Shown here: piece after piece, positions 1-11,440 of the stretch
Layout of the letters: each line of letters opens with the position of its first letter
How positions within the stretch are numbered: the first letter of the stretch is position 1
Source: a virus
Virus genome (UHGV): UHGV-2005248
Reading direction: 5' to 3' (one strand)
DNA: 12,870 bases
Notes under the pieces: generated by a model
Databases searched by the model: none
Told to the model about the DNA's origin: nothing
What the model saw: the letters and a program-made list of their open reading frames with translations, nothing else
Translations under genes and position numbers: made by a program

Positions 1-89
1 TAGCGCTGATGTCCGGCAGTGCTTTTGCCGTTACGCACCACCCCGTCAGTAGCTGAACAGGAGGGACAGCTGATAGAAACAGAAGCCAC
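1..89 (-). CDS. insA: IS1 InsA, N-terminal 29 codons only (gene runs off window start)
   Basis: Minus-strand translation from GTG at 89-87 gives [30 protein letters not shown], matching the InsA N-terminus as I recall it. Confidence 0.7.
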
Positions 90-144
90 TGGAGCACCTC
101 AAAAACACCATCATACACTAAATCAGTAAGTTGGCAGCATCACC
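1..144 (-). mobile_element. IS1 insertion sequence, terminal part (element continues past window start); 23-bp terminal inverted repeat at 122-144
   Basis: Reverse complement of 91-144 reads ggtgatgctgccaacttactgatttagtgtatgatggtgtttttgaggtgctcc, which I recognise as the IS1 end; reverse complement of 1-89 encodes the InsA N-terminus. Recognition from memory, not a database search. Confidence 0.8.
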
Positions 145-750
145 CCGAGGATTGAAAAGCTCAAATCTCTTGATGTTTCTTTTGTTTTTTGAGTAAAAGT
201 TTAAAGTGAAATATATTAGCACCTGTCTAAGATCGTAAACACTAAACTTCCTATCTCCTGATTTTATTTCCACAAGAACATTTGAATAATAAATATCGCC
301 ATATGAATTATTTATTACTCCGCATCCATCGAATTGTGGAGACACTTCAATTTGGTTTTCCATTCCATATCGAGACAAAATGTTTCTTGCTATTTCCCTT
401 ATGGCATTGTACTCAACCATGCTTAAGGGTAGCTTGAAGTTAGAACCGTAAGCGAACCGCTGTAGATATTCTTTTGTTTTTTCAAAAACAACCTGAAAAT
501 CAGCATTATGGAAGATATCATGTGCTGAAAGAATATTTCTGTCTAACGAATCATTCTGTATTGCCCTATATAAATTAAATGCGCACTCATTAACAAAGAC
601 GTTATTTGACCTATTAGCGCAGTCATCTAGAGGAGGATAAACGTCCTCGATGAGACTGCCGTTAATGATGCGTATGAAATTATTAGCATTTGGAAGCAAT
701 TGATTCCAAAATGAAGTGAATTTTCGAGAAAACGTTAATTCAGATATCAT
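118..750 (-). CDS. hypothetical RT-associated protein (candidate effector); 3' end disrupted by IS1, so the stop in the ORF track is not native
   Basis: 210-aa ORF whose start overlaps the RT stop by 4 nt. Its last 8 codons and stop (GDAANLLI, 118-144) are encoded by the IS1 terminus, so the native C-terminus is unknown. No hydrophobic TM segment. Weak D-x8-E-x-K pattern (GDIYYSNVLVEIK) that could be a PD-(D/E)xK nuclease motif. Confidence 0.55.
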   Translation of the reverse strand: MISELTFSRKFTSFWNQLLPNANNFIRIINGSLIEDVYPPLDDCANRSNNVFVNECAFNLYRAIQNDSLDRNILSAHDIFHNADFQVVFEKTKEYLQRFAYGSNFKLPLSMVEYNAIREIARNILSRYGMENQIEVSPQFDGCGVINNSYGDIYYSNVLVEIKSGDRKFSVYDLRQVLIYFTLNFYSKNKRNIKRFELFNPRGDAANLLI

Positions 751-2375
751 AGCGCATCCTCAAGATTTCTTGCGGTATGCCTTTTACTTGCCCAATCCCT
801 GTAAATCACCTCTACAAAGTTGAATGTTTTCTTATTATGCTCTCTCCAGTGCCGTCCTTCATCACCTAAGATGTAACTGGAAACGATCAATAGTCTTCTC
901 TGCAACGGATGCATTGCAGAGAAATTTTTTTTGATATCAGAAAGCCATGCGTAAGAATTAATTTTTGCCATTGACTGTGTAACTATGTTCTTGACTAAGA
1001 TGCTTTCTGGATTGTTATTGTATATTTCACTAAGGATTAGGGTGGATTTTTCTGAATTTTCTTTTGAGAGCATTCGGGCTACATAGGCTAAGTTGAGCTC
1101 AGTACTCAAAATATATGAATCTTGTTTAATTAGTGCAGTTATTTTATCAAGAATAATATCTTTGGTTTCTGTGCTTAATTTTTGCCAGTTGGAGTTAGCT
1201 ACTTGAATTATAGTTGTAAATATTGGATATAACTCATGCAAGTTATTAAACATTACTTTGAAAGCACTACTTATTATTTCATCTGATGTTGCTGAGAATG
1301 CCTTTATCAAATGCTTGCTAAAAGATTGGTTAATTTTTGATTTTTGTAACTCACTACTCAGCATAGCTAACAAGTCAAAATCTTTTAAAGATTCCTTTAT
1401 CTCTTCATATTCCTCTATCGCATTTGCTGAGTAAGGATCGAATCTTATAGGAAGACTCATAAATTTAGCCTTCATAGGAGATTCTTCATCTTCATCATTA
1501 CCATGCAACTTAGCTTTAGTTACTGAAAGGAACTCTTCTTTAGTAACAATATTGGTTTTTTGTTTCTGTAAAGTTAGCCCTTCATTTTCCATCAGTTTTT
1601 TACTAAGCAAAGTTAAAATCTTATGAGCATCCTCTCTAGAGTTACAAAAAATAACAAAGTCGTCGACATAACGCTTATAGTTGATTCTATTCATAGACAA
1701 TAATTTATCAATAGAATCTAGAGCTAGTTCTGCTAATATTCTAGAGGCAGGACATCCAACTGGTACTCCATATGATTTTGTTTCACTAAATGTCTGTAGT
1801 AATTTCTTGATTTTCCCAGAGTAATCTTTATTGGGGTCGACTCTATCTAACGCATTTTCTAAACGGTGGTGATAAATACGCGGATAGAAATCTGCTATAT
1901 CGCATGTAAGTACATACTTTATTTCATCGTTAGAACATTCAGAGATACTGTCTTCTTGATATTTTCTCCAAGAGATCTCTTTATCAAAAAGAGAACCATC
2001 AGCAAGGTTTGGTTTAAAGCGATATGAATAAACCTGCGTTTTAGTAGATCTATTCCTTTCAATATCATCAGCGATTTTTAAAACTAACCCAAGAAAAAAA
2101 GCATTCCAGAATGGATCAATTTGGGTCGCCCACCTGTAACCATAATAACCAATACTTGAAAAGCTATTAATTATGTTTGGTGGAATCTCGATCCTTTTAT
2201 TTTCAAAGTCATTAAATGTTTGCATTAATGCAGTTTTTACTTTCTCCTTATCATCTTCAAATAACCGACTTTCAAATGGGTAAGGGAAAATATCTGTATC
2301 GCCGTGCTTTATAATATTTTCCAATGCAAGCTCAAAGCAATTTTCTAGTTTACTACTATCAAACTCGTTACTCAT
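747..2375 (-). CDS. reverse transcriptase, Abi-class (AbiK/AbiA/Abi-P2-like) with long C-terminal extension
   Basis: 542 aa. RT palm motifs in canonical order: LTCDIADFYPRIYHH (motif A-like), YGVPVGCPASRILAELAL (motif B-like), YKRYVDDFVIF (YxDD catalytic motif), GLTLQKQKTNI (motif D/E-like). The pattern resembles AbiK as I recall it rather than retron or group II intron RTs. AAGGAG Shine-Dalgarno 7 nt upstream of ATG. Strongly AT-rich. Confidence 0.85.
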   Translation of the reverse strand: MSNEFDSSKLENCFELALENIIKHGDTDIFPYPFESRLFEDDKEKVKTALMQTFNDFENKRIEIPPNIINSFSSIGYYGYRWATQIDPFWNAFFLGLVLKIADDIERNRSTKTQVYSYRFKPNLADGSLFDKEISWRKYQEDSISECSNDEIKYVLTCDIADFYPRIYHHRLENALDRVDPNKDYSGKIKKLLQTFSETKSYGVPVGCPASRILAELALDSIDKLLSMNRINYKRYVDDFVIFCNSREDAHKILTLLSKKLMENEGLTLQKQKTNIVTKEEFLSVTKAKLHGNDEDEESPMKAKFMSLPIRFDPYSANAIEEYEEIKESLKDFDLLAMLSSELQKSKINQSFSKHLIKAFSATSDEIISSAFKVMFNNLHELYPIFTTIIQVANSNWQKLSTETKDIILDKITALIKQDSYILSTELNLAYVARMLSKENSEKSTLILSEIYNNNPESILVKNIVTQSMAKINSYAWLSDIKKNFSAMHPLQRRLLIVSSYILGDEGRHWREHNKKTFNFVEVIYRDWASKRHTARNLEDAL

Positions 2376-3552
2376 TCACATTCTCCTTAATAAAAATATA
2401 ATCTGAATACCACTGCATCATATCACGGCGTTTATCAATATATTGAGCATGATTATACGTACCTCTAATATTATTCTTATCTATATGAGCAAGCTGTATT
2501 TCTATCCAAGCCGAATCATATCCTTTTTCGTGGAGGATAGTAGATAAGGAATGTCGAAATCCATGACCAGTAAGTTTTCCACCATAACCAATACGCTTGA
2601 TAACTTGGTTAATACTCGCCTCACTCATAGGCTTGTTCGGATCGTTCCGCCCCGGAAAAACATAACTATACTTCCCTGTCATCATCTTGAGTTCATTTAG
2701 CAAATCTAACGCTTGAGTCGACAAAGGCACAAGGTGTGATCTGCGCATTTTCATCCTTTCAGCAGGAATTTCCCAAATAGCGTTATCTAAATCAAATTCT
2801 GACCATAATGCCGCACGTAATTCGATGGTTCTAACACCTGTAATCATGAGCAATTTCGTGGCAATCAGGACAAGCCGACTTCCGGTATATCCGTTTAAGG
2901 CGCGAAGAAAATCAGGTATCTCATTAGCCTTTAAGAACGGGAAATGATTTGATTGGTGTACATTGAGGGCGCTTGAAAGATCCGCAGCAGGGTTAAACTC
3001 AGCCCTTCCAGTAGCAATGGCATAGCGGAAAACTTCTGAGCATCGCTGCCGAACTTTGCGCATTTTTTCTAATGCACCGCGCTTTTCGATTTTACGCAGC
3101 ACATTAAGCAGTTCTAGCGGTTTAATCTCTCCCACTGGCCTTGTTCCCACATAAGGAAAAATGTCGTTCTTAAACGCTTCCATGATGTCTGATGCATATC
3201 CCGCCGACCATTTGGTAGACTTCTGTTGATGCCACTCTCTGGCTATCTTTTCGAAGGCGTTCTCTGACTCTGTTTGCAGAGCCAGCTTTTGCTCTTTTCG
3301 AACCTCACTAGGGTTCTTTCCTTCTGCCACAAGTTTTCGAGCTTCATCACGACGGGAACGAGCATCAGCAAGAGTGATCGTTGGGTAAACACCAAGCGAG
3401 ATCATTTTGGGTTTACCGGCATAGCGATAACGAAATCGCCAGCTTTTACTTCCATTTGGCTCTACAAGTAAAGACAACCCTTGCCCATCCCCAAGTGTAT
3501 AGGCTTTAGCTTCAGGTTTAGCACGGCGAATCTGCATATCATTTAGGGGCAT
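2368..3552 (-). CDS. int: tyrosine site-specific integrase, P4 family
   Basis: 394 aa. N-terminal Arm DNA-binding signature (AKAYTLGDGQGLSLLVEPNGSKSWRFRYRYAGKPKMISLGVYP ... RDEARKLVAEG). C-terminal catalytic region with HGFRHS box and terminal Tyr region RGTYNHAQYIDKRR. Immediately downstream of a tRNA 3' fragment in the same orientation. Confidence 0.92.
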   Translation of the reverse strand: MPLNDMQIRRAKPEAKAYTLGDGQGLSLLVEPNGSKSWRFRYRYAGKPKMISLGVYPTITLADARSRRDEARKLVAEGKNPSEVRKEQKLALQTESENAFEKIAREWHQQKSTKWSAGYASDIMEAFKNDIFPYVGTRPVGEIKPLELLNVLRKIEKRGALEKMRKVRQRCSEVFRYAIATGRAEFNPAADLSSALNVHQSNHFPFLKANEIPDFLRALNGYTGSRLVLIATKLLMITGVRTIELRAALWSEFDLDNAIWEIPAERMKMRRSHLVPLSTQALDLLNELKMMTGKYSYVFPGRNDPNKPMSEASINQVIKRIGYGGKLTGHGFRHSLSTILHEKGYDSAWIEIQLAHIDKNNIRGTYNHAQYIDKRRDMMQWYSDYIFIKENVNE

Positions 3553-3604
3553 GTGTATAGAATTCCAAAATCGAACAGGAACATATACATAATCCTATAC
3601 ACAT
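3551..3604. repeat. 10-bp perfect inverted repeat (atgtgtatag / ctatacacat) overlapping the integrase start codon; candidate operator or regulatory site
   Basis: 3551-3560 is the exact reverse complement of 3595-3604, with a 34-bp spacer. Confidence 0.3.
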
Positions 3605-3628
3605 TTAGTACTGGATTCTACTGGAAAG

Positions 3629-3700
3629 TTATGGACTAATACGAACAGTAAAAACAAAAAATCTTTTATAAAACAGTGCGGTTATGGATAAATACGGATG
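3629..3700. repeat. two imperfect 20-bp direct repeats (gttatggactaatacgaaca / gttatggataaatacggatg); candidate arm-type integrase binding sites
   Basis: 3629-3648 and 3681-3700 share 16 of 20 positions. They lie between the int start and the tRNA-derived att core. Confidence 0.35.
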
Positions 3701-3716
3701 TTTGAAGAAGTGGAGA

Positions 3717-3762
3717 TGGTGCCGATAATAGGAGTCGAACCTACGACCTTCGCATTACGAAT
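3717..3762 (-). other. 3' 46 nt of a tRNA-Thr(CGU) gene (anticodon loop through CCA end) = attachment-site core; not an intact tRNA
   Basis: Minus strand reads ATTCGTAATGCGAAGGTCGTAGGTTCGACTCCTATTATCGGCACCA (anticodon loop with CGT, T-arm GGTTCGACTCC, acceptor 3' strand, CCA). Sequence from 3763 onward cannot supply the acceptor 5' strand (no GCCGATA) or a D-arm. Confidence 0.75.
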
Positions 3763-4097: not shown

Positions 4098-4529
4098 ATG
4101 AAAAAATCACTCGTGCTAGTTATGTTTCTTTTCTCAGCTTGTGTTACTGCGAGTAATGACCTAGATCTATATGATAATCAAGGCAACGCCGTCGTTTATA
4201 TTTCACTTGATGACGAGTTGACTTTATATAGTTGGGAGGGTGAACCAAGCGCCTACCTTAAACATAACCAGAACAATGAGTTTGATGTTTATGGATTCAA
4301 TGGGAATCATTTAGGCTGGTTTACTAATGGTATGTTGATTGATCACGATGGCTATGTTGCCTGTGCAGTAAAAGACATGGTTACCACACCTAATTTGCCA
4401 TCACTTAAATCACTTAAGAGCCTCAAGCCTCTAAAATCGCTAACGGAACTTCCCCCTCTTTTCCCGCTGCTAAAAAATGCCTTTGGTCAGACAAATTGTT
4501 CTTTGTTAGTAGCTTCAGGTGTTGCATAA
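4098..4529 (+). CDS. hypothetical exported protein, possible lipoprotein, with short SLK tandem repeat
   Basis: 143 aa. N-terminal signal-peptide-like segment MKKSLVLVMFLFSAC with Cys after a lipobox-like FSA. AT-rich. C-terminal PSLKSLKSLKPLKSL repeat. Confidence 0.5.
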   Translation: MKKSLVLVMFLFSACVTASNDLDLYDNQGNAVVYISLDDELTLYSWEGEPSAYLKHNQNNEFDVYGFNGNHLGWFTNGMLIDHDGYVACAVKDMVTTPNLPSLKSLKSLKPLKSLTELPPLFPLLKNAFGQTNCSLLVASGVA

Positions 4530-4889: not shown

Positions 4890-5222
4890 TTAGACGTAAA
4901 TATCAATGGTGCCAGCGGTATTTGTATCGTCTTTTTTCTCTTCTTTTTTATCAGGCTGAACTGTCGCGTCTTCATTCTTTTTCTCTGCCTGCTGCCTTAA
5001 CAACTGCTCCAGTTGAGCCCTGAGGCTTTCAATTTGCTTCTGTACCAATGCAGCCATTTCTTTTTTCTGCTGTGTCGTCATCCCCTCTTCCGATGAGATT
5101 TTCCCAAGCTTTTCAGTCAGCACCTGAATTTGTCTTGTGATTTTGGCTATTTCTGATGTTCCTTCCGGGGCGGAGTTGTTTGAAATAACGGTTGAGGTAT
5201 TTCCCTGAATTGTGACAGACAT
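4890..5222 (-). CDS. flxA: FlxA-like protein (FliA-regulated small coiled-coil protein)
   Basis: 110 aa with a Q/K/E-rich coiled-coil middle (MAALVQKQIESLRAQLEQLLRQQAEKK); size and composition fit the FlxA family. Preceded by a near-consensus sigma-28 promoter and an AAGGAG Shine-Dalgarno. Confidence 0.7.
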   Translation of the reverse strand: MSVTIQGNTSTVISNNSAPEGTSEIAKITRQIQVLTEKLGKISSEEGMTTQQKKEMAALVQKQIESLRAQLEQLLRQQAEKKNEDATVQPDKKEEKKDDTNTAGTIDIYV

Positions 5223-6023: not shown

Positions 6024-7973
6024 ATGATTGTTCTAAATCAGATTAACTCCTCACTTTTGTACAATGTCGCTTACAGGTATACCATGAAATCCGAGACGCT
6101 AACTGTCCAACAACTTTTTCAAGACCGCCGACAATACTGCGTTCCATTCTATCAACGTGCCTATGTATGGACTCAGCGAAACCAATGGTCAGCTCTACTG
6201 GAGGATATCCTAGAGAAAGCACAATCCCGGCTCTCGGGTACAAAACCAACTCCCCATTTCCTTGGTGCAGTGGTACTGGAACCTCAACCAAAAAAAGGAT
6301 TATTAGGTGTAGATTCCATACATATTATTGATGGTCAGCAACGATTGACCACTCTTCAATATGTTCTGGCATCCATCCGATTAGCATTACGTGCGACAGA
6401 TCTTTCCAACTTAGAGCCTCTCATTTCGTCTTGCCTGAAAAACTCAAACGAAGACACAATGCGAAATAAAGAAGTAGAGCGCTTCAAACTGTGGCCAACT
6501 TTTCGGGATCAAACTCATTTTATTCAAAGTTTTAATGTTGAAAATATTGACGATATCCGGAATGTATTCTCTGATAGTTTCACGCAGCATGGTACGTTGC
6601 GTAAGCATTTTAATCACCCGCCATCACTAGAAGCATTATGTTTTTTTACTGAAGCCTTTATAAAGTGGATTAAAATAGAAAATCACTCACCACGAGAAAA
6701 TGCTGTAGCATTAATTGAGGCTGTCTTGACGGATCTGAAACTAGTAAGCATATTTCTCGAGGCTGAAGATGACGCTCAAATAATTTTTGAAACATTAAAT
6801 GGCAGAGGTGCGGAACTTCATGCCACAGATCTTATTCGCAATTATATTTTTATGTGCGCTGAACATGAAAATATTAATGCTGTTGAATTATATGAGAATG
6901 AGTGGAAGATCTTTGAAGATACGTACTGGTCAGAAAGACAACGTCGTGGTCGTATTAATAAACCACGCATGGAGTGGCTAGTGCATGCGACATTGCAATC
7001 AGAAAGGCAACGTGAAATCGATCTGTCTCGTCTTTACAATGAGTATCGTGATTATGTAAGTAAGGACTTGCCTTCACAACGAGCAGATCTGCAAGTAAAG
7101 CGCCTCAAACAATATGCATCACAATATAAAGAATTGGTTGGTGGTTTTGGCACAACCCCCATCTCACACTTTGGACATCGCATCGCAGCCTATGATGTGA
7201 CGACACTTTATCCGCTTGCTTTGTTCATTTCGATAGCTAACATCGCCGATGATGAGAAAGCAGCCATGTATAATGATCTTGTCTCCTACGTAGTACGAAG
7301 AGCCGTATGTGGCCTGACGCCAAAGAATTACAACAATGTATTTATGAATGTATTGCGGCACTTGTCTAAAACGGAAATTTCCAGTGTTGAGTTACGTAAT
7401 ATCCTCAATAGCTTAAATGGCGAAGCCTCACGTTGGCCTGGGGACTCAGAATTTCTCAACGCTTGCATCAATGCTCCACTTTATCCTGGCAGGCTCGACG
7501 CACCGAAAATGCGCTCAATGTTAACGGAACTTGAAAGAGAACTTTGTCGCCAAGTGAAGACAGAGAAGCCTGATGTTCCAAATCTTTCTAACCTCGATAT
7601 CGATCATCTTATGCCTCAAAGTTGGTATTCCTGTTGGCCTCTCGAAAATGGTCATATGGTGACAAATTCAGATGCTACGGTATTGAACCAAATTGTTCTG
7701 TCTGGAACCGATCTTACCCCTGAACAGCTACTGGTAAGGAAACGGCAACAAGCGATAGCTACGTTGGGAAATCTAACATTGCTTAACCTTAGCGTAAACC
7801 GTTCTGTTCAGAATGCTGTATTTCTGAAAAAACGTGATGCTCTCATCGTCCACACCAATCTACGACTGAACATTCCACTTATAGTTAAGGATAAATGGGA
7901 TGAGGATGAAATCCTGGAGCGGGGTAAAAAGTTGGGGGAAATTGCATTGAAAGTATGGCCAAAACACGATTAA
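6024..7973 (+). CDS. GmrSD-like type IV (modification-dependent) restriction endonuclease, DUF262 + DUF1524 fusion
   Basis: 649 aa from the first ATG; the more likely start is ATG 6084 (MKSETLTV...), which has an AGG upstream. N-terminal DUF262/ParB-like signature including IIDGQQRLTTL. C-terminal His-Me finger (DUF1524-like) DIDHLMPQSW ... GNLTLLNLSVNRSVQN. Confidence 0.75.
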   Translation: MIVLNQINSSLLYNVAYRYTMKSETLTVQQLFQDRRQYCVPFYQRAYVWTQRNQWSALLEDILEKAQSRLSGTKPTPHFLGAVVLEPQPKKGLLGVDSIHIIDGQQRLTTLQYVLASIRLALRATDLSNLEPLISSCLKNSNEDTMRNKEVERFKLWPTFRDQTHFIQSFNVENIDDIRNVFSDSFTQHGTLRKHFNHPPSLEALCFFTEAFIKWIKIENHSPRENAVALIEAVLTDLKLVSIFLEAEDDAQIIFETLNGRGAELHATDLIRNYIFMCAEHENINAVELYENEWKIFEDTYWSERQRRGRINKPRMEWLVHATLQSERQREIDLSRLYNEYRDYVSKDLPSQRADLQVKRLKQYASQYKELVGGFGTTPISHFGHRIAAYDVTTLYPLALFISIANIADDEKAAMYNDLVSYVVRRAVCGLTPKNYNNVFMNVLRHLSKTEISSVELRNILNSLNGEASRWPGDSEFLNACINAPLYPGRLDAPKMRSMLTELERELCRQVKTEKPDVPNLSNLDIDHLMPQSWYSCWPLENGHMVTNSDATVLNQIVLSGTDLTPEQLLVRKRQQAIATLGNLTLLNLSVNRSVQNAVFLKKRDALIVHTNLRLNIPLIVKDKWDEDEILERGKKLGEIALKVWPKHD

Positions 7974-9566: not shown

Positions 9567-10237
9567 GCGGCCCTCACAATATAATTAAAAGCGATGTTAC
9601 GAGGACGAGTTTCTGTACCTACATTTCCACTAATTTCACCATAACGTTTAACACTACGAGAGCTAAGAGCTCGTAGTGAGGAAGGCACCTTAAGACCGGG
9701 TTCGTCCGTTTTAACTATTCCCCCGTCACCGTATGTAGCCAGTATTCCTGGGTTTACTCCTTCCCGTGCACTTCCTGCGGCGAGTCCGTCCCCTGTCCAT
9801 AATTCCATATAGTGTGCATGGTCCAAAATTGTGTGTGGCTGCCAATTAAGCAAAGCGCGACCAGTATCAATCCCGCGACCGTCATCCCAGCCACGAATAA
9901 ATTCACCGCGTAAATCAGGCAATTTATTGGTCTGGTAAGCCTTTGCCAGTTCCGGGTATTCTTCAGCAGAAAAAGCCGCACCATTGCATTTCAGCCAGCC
10001 TGTTGGCGGAGTGGCTGAGGGCCACGGAACAGGCACACCAACGGGTAATGCCGAACCTTCTCCCAAACCAAGGTTTTCGAGAGCCGTTTTCACCGTGCCA
10101 TCCGATTTGATATCGCCAAACGGATTCTTGCGGCTTAACAGCAGCGCACGAAGCGCGGTAAGCAACTGGTCGTGCCGCCCCTTCTCCAGGCTGGCACCGG
10201 ATGCCTCCACCACGCTGCAAAGCTCCTCCTGCAACAT
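9563..10237 (-). CDS. tail fibre protein, C-terminal part with phage tail-collar domain (5' portion missing)
   Basis: Collar-domain-like motif [40 protein letters not shown]. The frame stays open upstream of the first ATG to 10339, then hits a stop beside N-gene-derived sequence. Confidence 0.7.
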
Positions 10238-10854
10238 GTCAAAGTAGTCATCATCCAGATCGGTGGCAGGCGTGCCTGTCTGGGGGTTACCACGGGTAAA
10301 ACCGTTCTTACCCGCGCCGAACTTATCCTTCTGCGCGGTTTACCGATAACGTCGTTCTGCACGAAATCCGCCACACCATCGATACTGAAACCGCTGAAGC
10401 TGTCACTGATGCAGTCATCCAGTGCAGAACAGGATGACATCAGCGTCTGCGCCGTCGCCGCACCTGATGTGGGGTAAGAGAGTTCTCCTGCTTCGACAAA
10501 CTTCAGGTCAAAGCGGACAATACGCCCTTCACTTTTCGATGTGCTGACCCGAACTTCCCCGTCAACACAGACTTTCAGCTCACCATATGTCGGGTGGACA
10601 AGCGTGCCGGGACCGGGTTTATTCAGCGCTTCAATCAGGCGATCGCGCTGGTCAAAGCAGTCATCTCCCACCACATAAGCTGTGATGGACGGGCGGAAAG
10701 TGACTTTTCCCAGATCTTCGGTATAGGGCTTGTCGCGGTTCGGGTATTCATGTGTTTCCACACGGCGACCGGTTCCCGCACTTTCTTCTTCAACCTTAAA
10801 CGGCACACCTCGAAATGACGCATCCTGTAGCCTGTCTTTCCACGTCATATACAC
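10135..10854 (-). pseudogene. Mu-like DNA circulation protein N, N-terminal fragment; reading frame degenerates after about aa 170
   Basis: N-terminus MYMTWKDRLQDASFRGVPFKVEE..RRVETHEYPNRDKPYTEDLGKV..AYVVGDD..RDRLIEALNKPGPGTLVHPTYG fits the DNA-circulation N-terminal domain pattern as I recall it. The last ~70 aa of the ORF are R/C/W/P-rich, out-of-frame read-through of tail-fibre sequence. Confidence 0.6.
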
Positions 10855-10909: not shown

Positions 10910-11440
10910 TTAGCGGGTCAGAAACAACGAATCTTTATACTTTTGCTGTTGTTCATTTAAATACTTAGCTGTTTCATCGCTGGCAAATGGAAATATTACC
11001 GTATTTTTAGGCATGGTAATTTCTTTTTTGTCCAGCGTCAGAGTAAACATAGGAACATACTGAGCAGAGTAACGCACCGCAGAAACGAGCTCTAGTTTAG
11101 ACTCTTCAATAACACTTAAATTATCCAGGCTAACTTTCTCTTCATCTTTTTTCTTTGACGCATTTAAAGTTTTTATTACTTTATTTAATTTCTCCTGAAA
11201 ATCCTCCTTAAAGTTTTCAGGATTGCCGTCGACAACAAGAATCTGTTCACCCTGATTATCTGGAAAAATAATCTTTGCACTTATCAATTTATTTTCTTTA
11301 TAAACATCACCAAGTTTTATGGCTCCTCCAGATAACTGAATAATATGTTCATCTTTAAAGGAGATGTTGCCAGAGATTATGAGAGATGAAAAAATAGCCG
11401 CTGCTCCAAGAATTACACTTGCTGTGATATAGCCTTTCAT
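10910..11440 (-). CDS. hypothetical membrane-anchored protein (AT-rich moron inside tail module)
   Basis: 176 aa. Single N-terminal hydrophobic helix ITASVILGAAAIFSSLIISG, then a K/E-rich soluble domain. Markedly more AT-rich than the flanking tail genes. Has its own terminator. Confidence 0.6.
   Translation of the reverse strand: MKGYITASVILGAAAIFSSLIISGNISFKDEHIIQLSGGAIKLGDVYKENKLISAKIIFPDNQGEQILVVDGNPENFKEDFQEKLNKVIKTLNASKKKDEEKVSLDNLSVIEESKLELVSAVRYSAQYVPMFTLTLDKKEITMPKNTVIFPFASDETAKYLNEQQQKYKDSLFLTR

Follow-up and report, generated by a model that had tools for sequence, protein, structure and literature searches.

The window analysed here, a stretch of 12,870 nucleotides from the virus genome UHGV-2005248, begins inside an insertion sequence, and an open reading frame (ORF) that lies next to the gene of a reverse transcriptase (RT) stops within that insertion sequence. 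The locus raises the question of whether this ORF encodes an RT-associated protein in its own right or is what remains visible of a longer gene and, in the latter case, which system has been interrupted, by what kind of event, and with what consequence for its function.

An IS1 end supplies the last codons of the ORF

In the initial annotation, positions 1–144 of the window had been taken for IS1, with a terminal inverted repeat ending at 144, and the final eight codons and the stop of the ORF (118–750, minus strand) had been ascribed to the insertion sequence. Both claims are borne out, with coordinates and codon count exact. Positions 1–144 align with one end of an annotated IS1A of 768 bp in Escherichia coli A27, its terminal 144 bp (locus L008, 5759–5902), and are identical to it at 144 of 144 positions (E = 8e-76); base 144 is the last position identical to IS1, and the outer end of the inverted repeat is located there. 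A search of 5,426 complete E. coli genomes matched this segment to IS1 copies, annotated as IS1 transposase, in 4,963 of them. Like IS1A, the window possesses the terminus in full, the 23-bp inverted repeat and the start of insA, which, from our reading of the sequence and general knowledge of IS1, we take to be the GTG at 89–87 (minus strand), with the gene running off the window. Unlike the annotated 768-bp copy, the element shows one end alone in the window. IS1 and the RT operon read in the same direction.

On the native side of the junction, positions 145–3762 are 100% identical to an IS-free locus (L002, 6001–9618). The 606 nt from position 750 down to position 145 make up exactly 202 codons, ending in ...FELFNPR, and the junction falls on a codon boundary. 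The 210-aa product of the ORF consists of these 202 native residues followed by eight that are encoded by IS1 (Table 1).

Five contigs encode exactly this 210-aa protein, and they derive from at least two samples (ENA ERZ1742002; ERZ918720 together with Logan ERR525885). The three readable junction contigs stop 29, 126 and 158 nt into IS1. In comparisons of the window with junction contigs, one was 100% identical over 10.4 kb and the other had 4 differences in 10.7 kb. Because the junction is shared by independent assemblies, it represents a real, inherited allele and not an artefact of assembly or of a vector. The junction was found in 0 of the 5,426 complete E. coli genomes, in which the best matches span only positions 145–900 of the window.

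Table 1. Features at the IS1 junction and in the adjoining satellite (positions in the window).
Feature	Position	Strand	Basis
IS1 left end (IS1A type)	1..144	-	Identity to the IS1A of L008
IS1 terminal inverted repeat GGTGATGCTGCCAACTTACTGAT, 23 bp	144-122	-	Part of the IS1 left end
IS1-encoded ORF tail, 8 codons (GDAANLLI) and TAA stop	118..144	-	Translation; in no homologue
Native part of the DRT8 PD-(D/E)xK nuclease effector, 202 of 246 codons	145..750	-	PADLOC RTasPDDEXK; IS-free alleles
UG7-group reverse transcriptase, 542 aa, YVDD, intact	747..2375	-	PADLOC Drt8; Pfam RVT_1
P4-type tyrosine integrase of the satellite, intact	2368..3552	-	Pfam Arm-DNA-bind_3, Phage_int_M, Phage_integrase
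Attachment-site core, partial thrW (tRNA-Thr), 3' part	about 3716..3762		Alignment; BLAST against L002 and L007

The interrupted gene encodes the nuclease effector of a DRT type 8 system

The RT matches the PADLOC profile Drt8 over nearly its entire length (E = 4.9e-166; profile positions 4–492 of 493) and Pfam RVT_1 (E = 1.2e-18). Its translation contains the YVDD motif and is identical to the RT of the WP_000064054.1 loci, and its gene overlaps the start of the nuclease gene by 4 nt. The ORF itself, described at first simply as the partner gene of the RT, matches the PADLOC profile RTasPDDEXK (E = 6.7e-61) and could be confirmed as the PD-(D/E)xK effector of DRT type 8 (PADLOC; PMC9226505). 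Since IS1 interrupts the gene, the match extends only over profile positions 1–187 of 226, compared with 1–224 for the intact allele.

DRT type 8 consists of a UG7 RT and a PD-(D/E)XK nuclease effector, designated 'cluster 17' (Mestre et al. 2022, PMC9226505). The system protects E. coli against T5, and mutation of the active site of either the RT or the nuclease abolishes defence; UG7 systems have also been reported in the variable regions of P4-like satellites (PMC9226505). The window resembles DRT type 8 in the RT profile, in the profile of the RT-associated PD-(D/E)xK nuclease, in the gene order, with the RT preceding the nuclease, and in its location in a P4-like variable region, and its copy differs from the intact E. 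coli allele solely by IS1 after codon 202 of 246. The locus is thus an unremarkable case of IS1 interrupting a defence gene that is already known and annotated in PADLOC, within a hotspot that is likewise known, and does not represent a new system.

It had been proposed that the intact system should be sought in IS1-free homologues, and there it was found, as two genes encoding the 542-aa RT and a 246-aa nuclease (WP_000622599.1). Among the 5,426 complete genomes of E. coli searched, 104 contain the nuclease gene at full length (741 bp) and without an IS, and the IS-free alleles sampled are 100% identical to the window over positions 145–3700. After ...FELFNPR (R202), the IS-free sequence runs on as MGITYSDTIVNLCKELAFIQPEELYFEIMNSITEENFIVTEMQR. 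The residues lost in the window allele are the last 44 aa, which are conserved and correspond to 135 bp of the gene.

A database search yielded more than 50 full-length homologues of 241–259 aa, mostly 246 aa, from Enterobacterales, Snodgrassella, Colwellia, Pseudoalteromonas, Oceanimonas and other hosts. We looked among these for IS-free proteins with the C-terminus GDAANLLI, and none of the more than 50 ends in this way. With 210 aa, 202 of them native, against 246 aa in the intact allele and 241–259 aa in the family, the window ORF is a disrupted member of DRT8. The C-terminal 44 residues are conserved across the homologues in both length and pattern. In the alignments, N200-P201-R202, immediately before the break, is invariant, M203 and G204, immediately after it, are at least 90% conserved, with G204 invariant in the 52-sequence alignment (A2), and the residues D152, E161 and K163 are invariant.

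IS-free loci place the cassette in the psu-int hotspot of P4-like satellites

In the IS-free loci, the integrase gene is followed by the genes of the RT and the nuclease, a convergent psu and delta/ogr, after which the remainder of a P4-like satellite extends as far as the alpha primase. Loci with this order from psu to the alpha primase match positions 145–3762 of the window fully, with one 1-bp gap in L001. The integrase, which is annotated as such in L001 and L002, overlaps the start of the RT by 8 nt. The region between psu and int is a defence hotspot of P4-like satellites (Rousset et al. 2022, PMC9122126), and the DRT8 cassette of the IS-free loci sits exactly between integrase and psu, at thrW. 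The window holds the integrase side of this hotspot, and the psu side falls beyond IS1. The cassette is AT-rich, with a GC fraction of 0.30–0.39 across positions 1–2400 of the window. DNA of this kind is the type of target preferred by IS1.

The attachment-site core is common to L002, where an intact thrW lies beside int, and to the satellite-free site L007; a search of the window with ARAGORN found no complete tRNA. At this core, the satellite ends on its int side and meets a neighbouring prophage remnant. The P4-like satellite and the prophage remnant are arranged in tandem at thrW, between paoD and proA.

In the intact loci, the nuclease gene is the last of its operon and converges with psu, and a terminator-like hairpin is located about 140 nt beyond the native nuclease stop. 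Because of this position, only 135 bp of the defence system are absent from the window. Two statements of the initial annotation have to be read in this light. The native C-terminus is indeed missing, by 44 aa, but the wording that it has been replaced goes too far, being true of the window only. Similarly, whatever lies downstream is missing from the window, as had been stated, but it includes no further component of the defence system.

A simple IS1 insertion as the likely origin of the allele

Our best explanation, to which we assign a probability of about 80%, is that the window carries an IS1-disrupted DRT8 nuclease gene in a P4-like satellite at thrW, that this copy of the system is likely inactive, and that a recent simple transposition is the likeliest event. 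In this explanation, a P4-like satellite at thrW carries the two-gene DRT8 system, a UG7 RT followed by a putatively RecB/Cas4-like nuclease, in its psu-int hotspot. The AT-rich nuclease gene has received an IS1 precisely at the boundary of codons 202 and 203, so that reading continues for eight codons into the IS1 end and stops, giving a 210-aa product devoid of the last core-adjacent β-strand and of three helices. As a working model of the intact system, a DNA product made by the RT upon infection would license the nuclease. The mechanism of DRT8 is listed as not established in a 2026 overview (PMC13213688), and our literature search for an established mechanism found none.

Intact loci and the window share the RT, the integrase and the 606 nt that form the 5' part of the nuclease gene at 100% identity, and the event therefore appears to be recent. 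On balance, we favour a simple transposition, with the 3' remnant of the gene and the rest of the satellite located beyond IS1. The predicted target-site duplication is of 9 bp, CCGAGGATT (noted earlier as ccgaggatt from position 145). We scanned for the far side with a pattern made up of native sequence, 0–14 nt, and then the other IS1 end. Neither this pattern nor that of the near-side junction had a match in the metagenome, GTDB-genome and viral contig collections; since the near-side junction is equally absent from the collections scanned, the absence of the far side carries no information.

The exact 44-aa remnant beginning at M203 has been annotated once as a separate ORF (EIG91658.1, E. 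coli 97.0246), possibly of another allele, which hints at a simple insertion with a surviving 3' remnant. In A27, an IS1A resides in the same hotspot (NZ_CP028748.1; L008, 5750–6535), between the genes of a UvrD helicase and an ATP-dependent nuclease (a Gabija-like pair), and a perfect target-site duplication of 9 bp, GTTTAAGCT, borders it on both sides. By analogy, this may be taken as an indirect hint that the window allele, too, arose by simple insertion. The A27 element is also a second case of IS1 in an AT-rich cassette of the hotspot.

Alternatively, the 3' end of the gene might have been lost, along with psu and everything else in the satellite, through a deletion that IS1 caused next to itself or through recombination of one IS1 copy with another; the native end would in that case really be gone, as the title of the initial annotation has it. 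In favour of such a loss, the far side is present on no contig, its pattern has no match in any collection, and P4-like elements at this site are often degraded, as in L002 with its primase and derepression pseudogenes. However, the near-side junction is missing from the same collections, which makes the negative result uninformative, an E. coli genome at NCBI does contain an ORF for precisely the 44-aa remnant, and the IS1A in the hotspot of A27 was inserted cleanly, with 9 bp duplicated. We therefore regard a deletion or recombination as somewhat unlikely.

Predicted consequences of the truncation

The structural context of the break was examined in an AlphaFold model of a full-length homologue, 87% identical to the nuclease, built with the 52-sequence alignment (pLDDT 91.7, pTM 0.88; pLDDT of about 97 for residues 201–230). 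In the modelled core, D152 begins the strand 153–155, E161 lies within the strand 158–162 with K163 directly after it, and Q176 and Y180 are located in the helix 171–185, which is followed by the strand 195–200. The position of IS1 corresponds to a β-hairpin turn, between N200-P201-R202 and M203-G204. The catalytic elements D152, E161-x-K163 and Q176/Y180 are all upstream of the break and are kept. The parts removed are the strand 205–210 and the helices 211–219, 223–235 and 237–245.

The nuclease shares the D...ExK and Q-x3-Y motifs with PD-(D/E)xK nucleases of the RecB/Cas4/Dna2 type. The best Foldseek matches of the model are Dna2, AdnA, the Cas4-like ACE1, RecB, AddA and MGME1, and these fold matches, though weak (best E = 1.5e-3, TM about 0.3–0.4), are consistent in indicating a nuclease of the RecB/Cas4/Dna2 type. 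In contrast to nucleases of this type, the DRT8 nuclease has no Fe-S cysteine cluster. A Pfam search of the nuclease gave no match, and a search of PDB sequences with the family profile gave nothing meaningful.

Because 18% of a compact, conserved domain is lost, loss of function is the likeliest outcome despite the retention of the catalytic residues. The truncated nuclease quite probably misfolds or malfunctions, in which case this DRT8 copy would no longer defend. The allele is present in two slightly diverged genomes; its persistence in them fits a neutral loss and is no proof of lost function.

We consider it unlikely that the truncated nuclease is still active, or active in an altered form, and that this copy of DRT8 goes on defending, perhaps under different regulation or with a different toxicity; on this view, no more than a C-terminal appendage would have been lost. 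An active product could draw on the retained D152, E161-x-K163 and Q176/Y180, as well as on the main helix of the core and four of its strands, and at least two genomes, slightly diverged, have kept the allele. However, the 44 lost residues are conserved in length and sequence in Enterobacterales, Snodgrassella, Colwellia, Pseudoalteromonas and others, they are modelled at very high confidence within the globular domain, and the break comes directly after the invariant NPR, with the PADLOC profile reached only to position 187 of 226.

That the truncation is a functional change seems very improbable to us. It would then either have produced a deregulated or re-specified effector or be part of a recurrent on/off route of IS1 insertion and excision, which could relieve autoimmunity caused by a toxic DRT8 nuclease, by way of the AT-rich cassettes of the hotspot. 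Such a reading would be favoured by the fact that the allele has been maintained in its lineage and not swapped out.

A junction artefact, whether a chimeric contig joined at a repeat or contamination by a vector (pACYC184/Tn9, with an IS1 fragment), is hardly credible and was rejected, given that, even though the window starts inside a repeat, probably at a contig end, and IS1 fragments do occur in cloning vectors, the identical junction is common to separate assemblies of at least two independent samples made with different assemblers, the junction contigs hold IS1 stretches of the three lengths given above, and the 144 nt are the natural end of IS1, closing precisely with the inverted repeat.

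Disrupted copies are rare in complete genomes

Among the 106 complete E. coli genomes that contain the cassette, the nuclease gene is full length in 104, and no IS was seen in this gene in any of the 106. Recurrent IS hits on the nuclease gene had been considered as a candidate pattern and were rejected on account of these 104 full-length copies. Other genes of the cassette region are split by insertion sequences in a few cases: the DRT8 RT gene by IS3 in one genome (EN-1077, NZ_CP159209.1; L006, 5754–7148), and the integrase gene by IS1SD in two genomes, both of chicken isolates (hits H16 and H17). The rarity of disrupted copies in complete genomes agrees with the report that recognisable defence-gene pseudogenes are rare in P4 hotspots, accounting for less than 1% of pseudogenes (NAR 2026, PMC13586616). 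Set against the hotspots described there, the window copy is one of the uncommon disrupted cases.

In draft E. coli assemblies, many partial nucleases are found at contig ends (P0057–P0070 and P0076–P0083), either N-terminal parts of 126–182 aa or C-terminal parts of 72–109 aa. Other disrupted alleles are seen near codon 129/130, where P0068 ends in ...RYGKPN and P0075 and P0072 begin at M130. Such sequences may reflect either IS insertions or low coverage of AT-rich DNA; the partial proteins of draft assemblies could be due to assembly breaks in AT-rich DNA and were left out of the evidence for disruption.

For annotation, ORF 118–750 is to be treated as an IS1-disrupted pseudogene of the DRT8 nuclease effector and not as a 210-aa protein, and the locus is to be left out of tallies of intact defence systems. 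Recognisably inactivated defence genes are uncommon in P4 hotspots, and this is one more example of them. As a natural C-terminal truncation, the allele could show whether the conserved 44 residues matter for DRT8 defence. Any such structure-function point would be small but usable for a system whose mechanism is not established (PMC13213688).

Other genes in the window

The island beside the satellite encodes an intact type IV (modification-dependent) restriction enzyme of the GmrSD type (6024–7973, plus strand), which matches Pfam GmrSD_N and GmrSD_C as well as PADLOC mREase_IV (E = 0). In other strains, the position of this gene is occupied by the RT of retron Ec67 or by a set of DUF4062, HTH and RT genes; given these different cassettes, it is a second variable defence locus. 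Between the attachment-site core and the GmrSD gene, there are two further genes, one for a secreted "4-fold beta flower" protein (Pfam Bflower; 4098–4529, plus strand) and one for a FlxA-like protein of the kind found in the Qin prophage (4890–5222, minus strand).

The segment 8069–9566 contains the remnant of a Pin-type invertase, a 54-aa ORF with a Resolvase N-terminal domain, beside convergent tail-fibre-assembly genes, and looks like a decayed invertible tail-fibre segment. Another ORF, of 176 aa (10910–11440, minus strand), has a GC content of about 36%, a hydrophobic N-terminus and no Pfam match. It is inserted between a tape-measure fragment and the DNA-circularisation gene, which are adjacent in L008, and may be a moron or cargo gene. 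Within ORF 10135–10854 (minus strand), at about position 10340, the sequence passes from the N-terminus of the DNA-circularisation protein to the tail-fibre (Collar) gene, out of frame. Compared with A27 (L008, 15447–19959), about 4.5 kb of baseplate genes are deleted at this point, and the neighbouring prophage is therefore a remnant.
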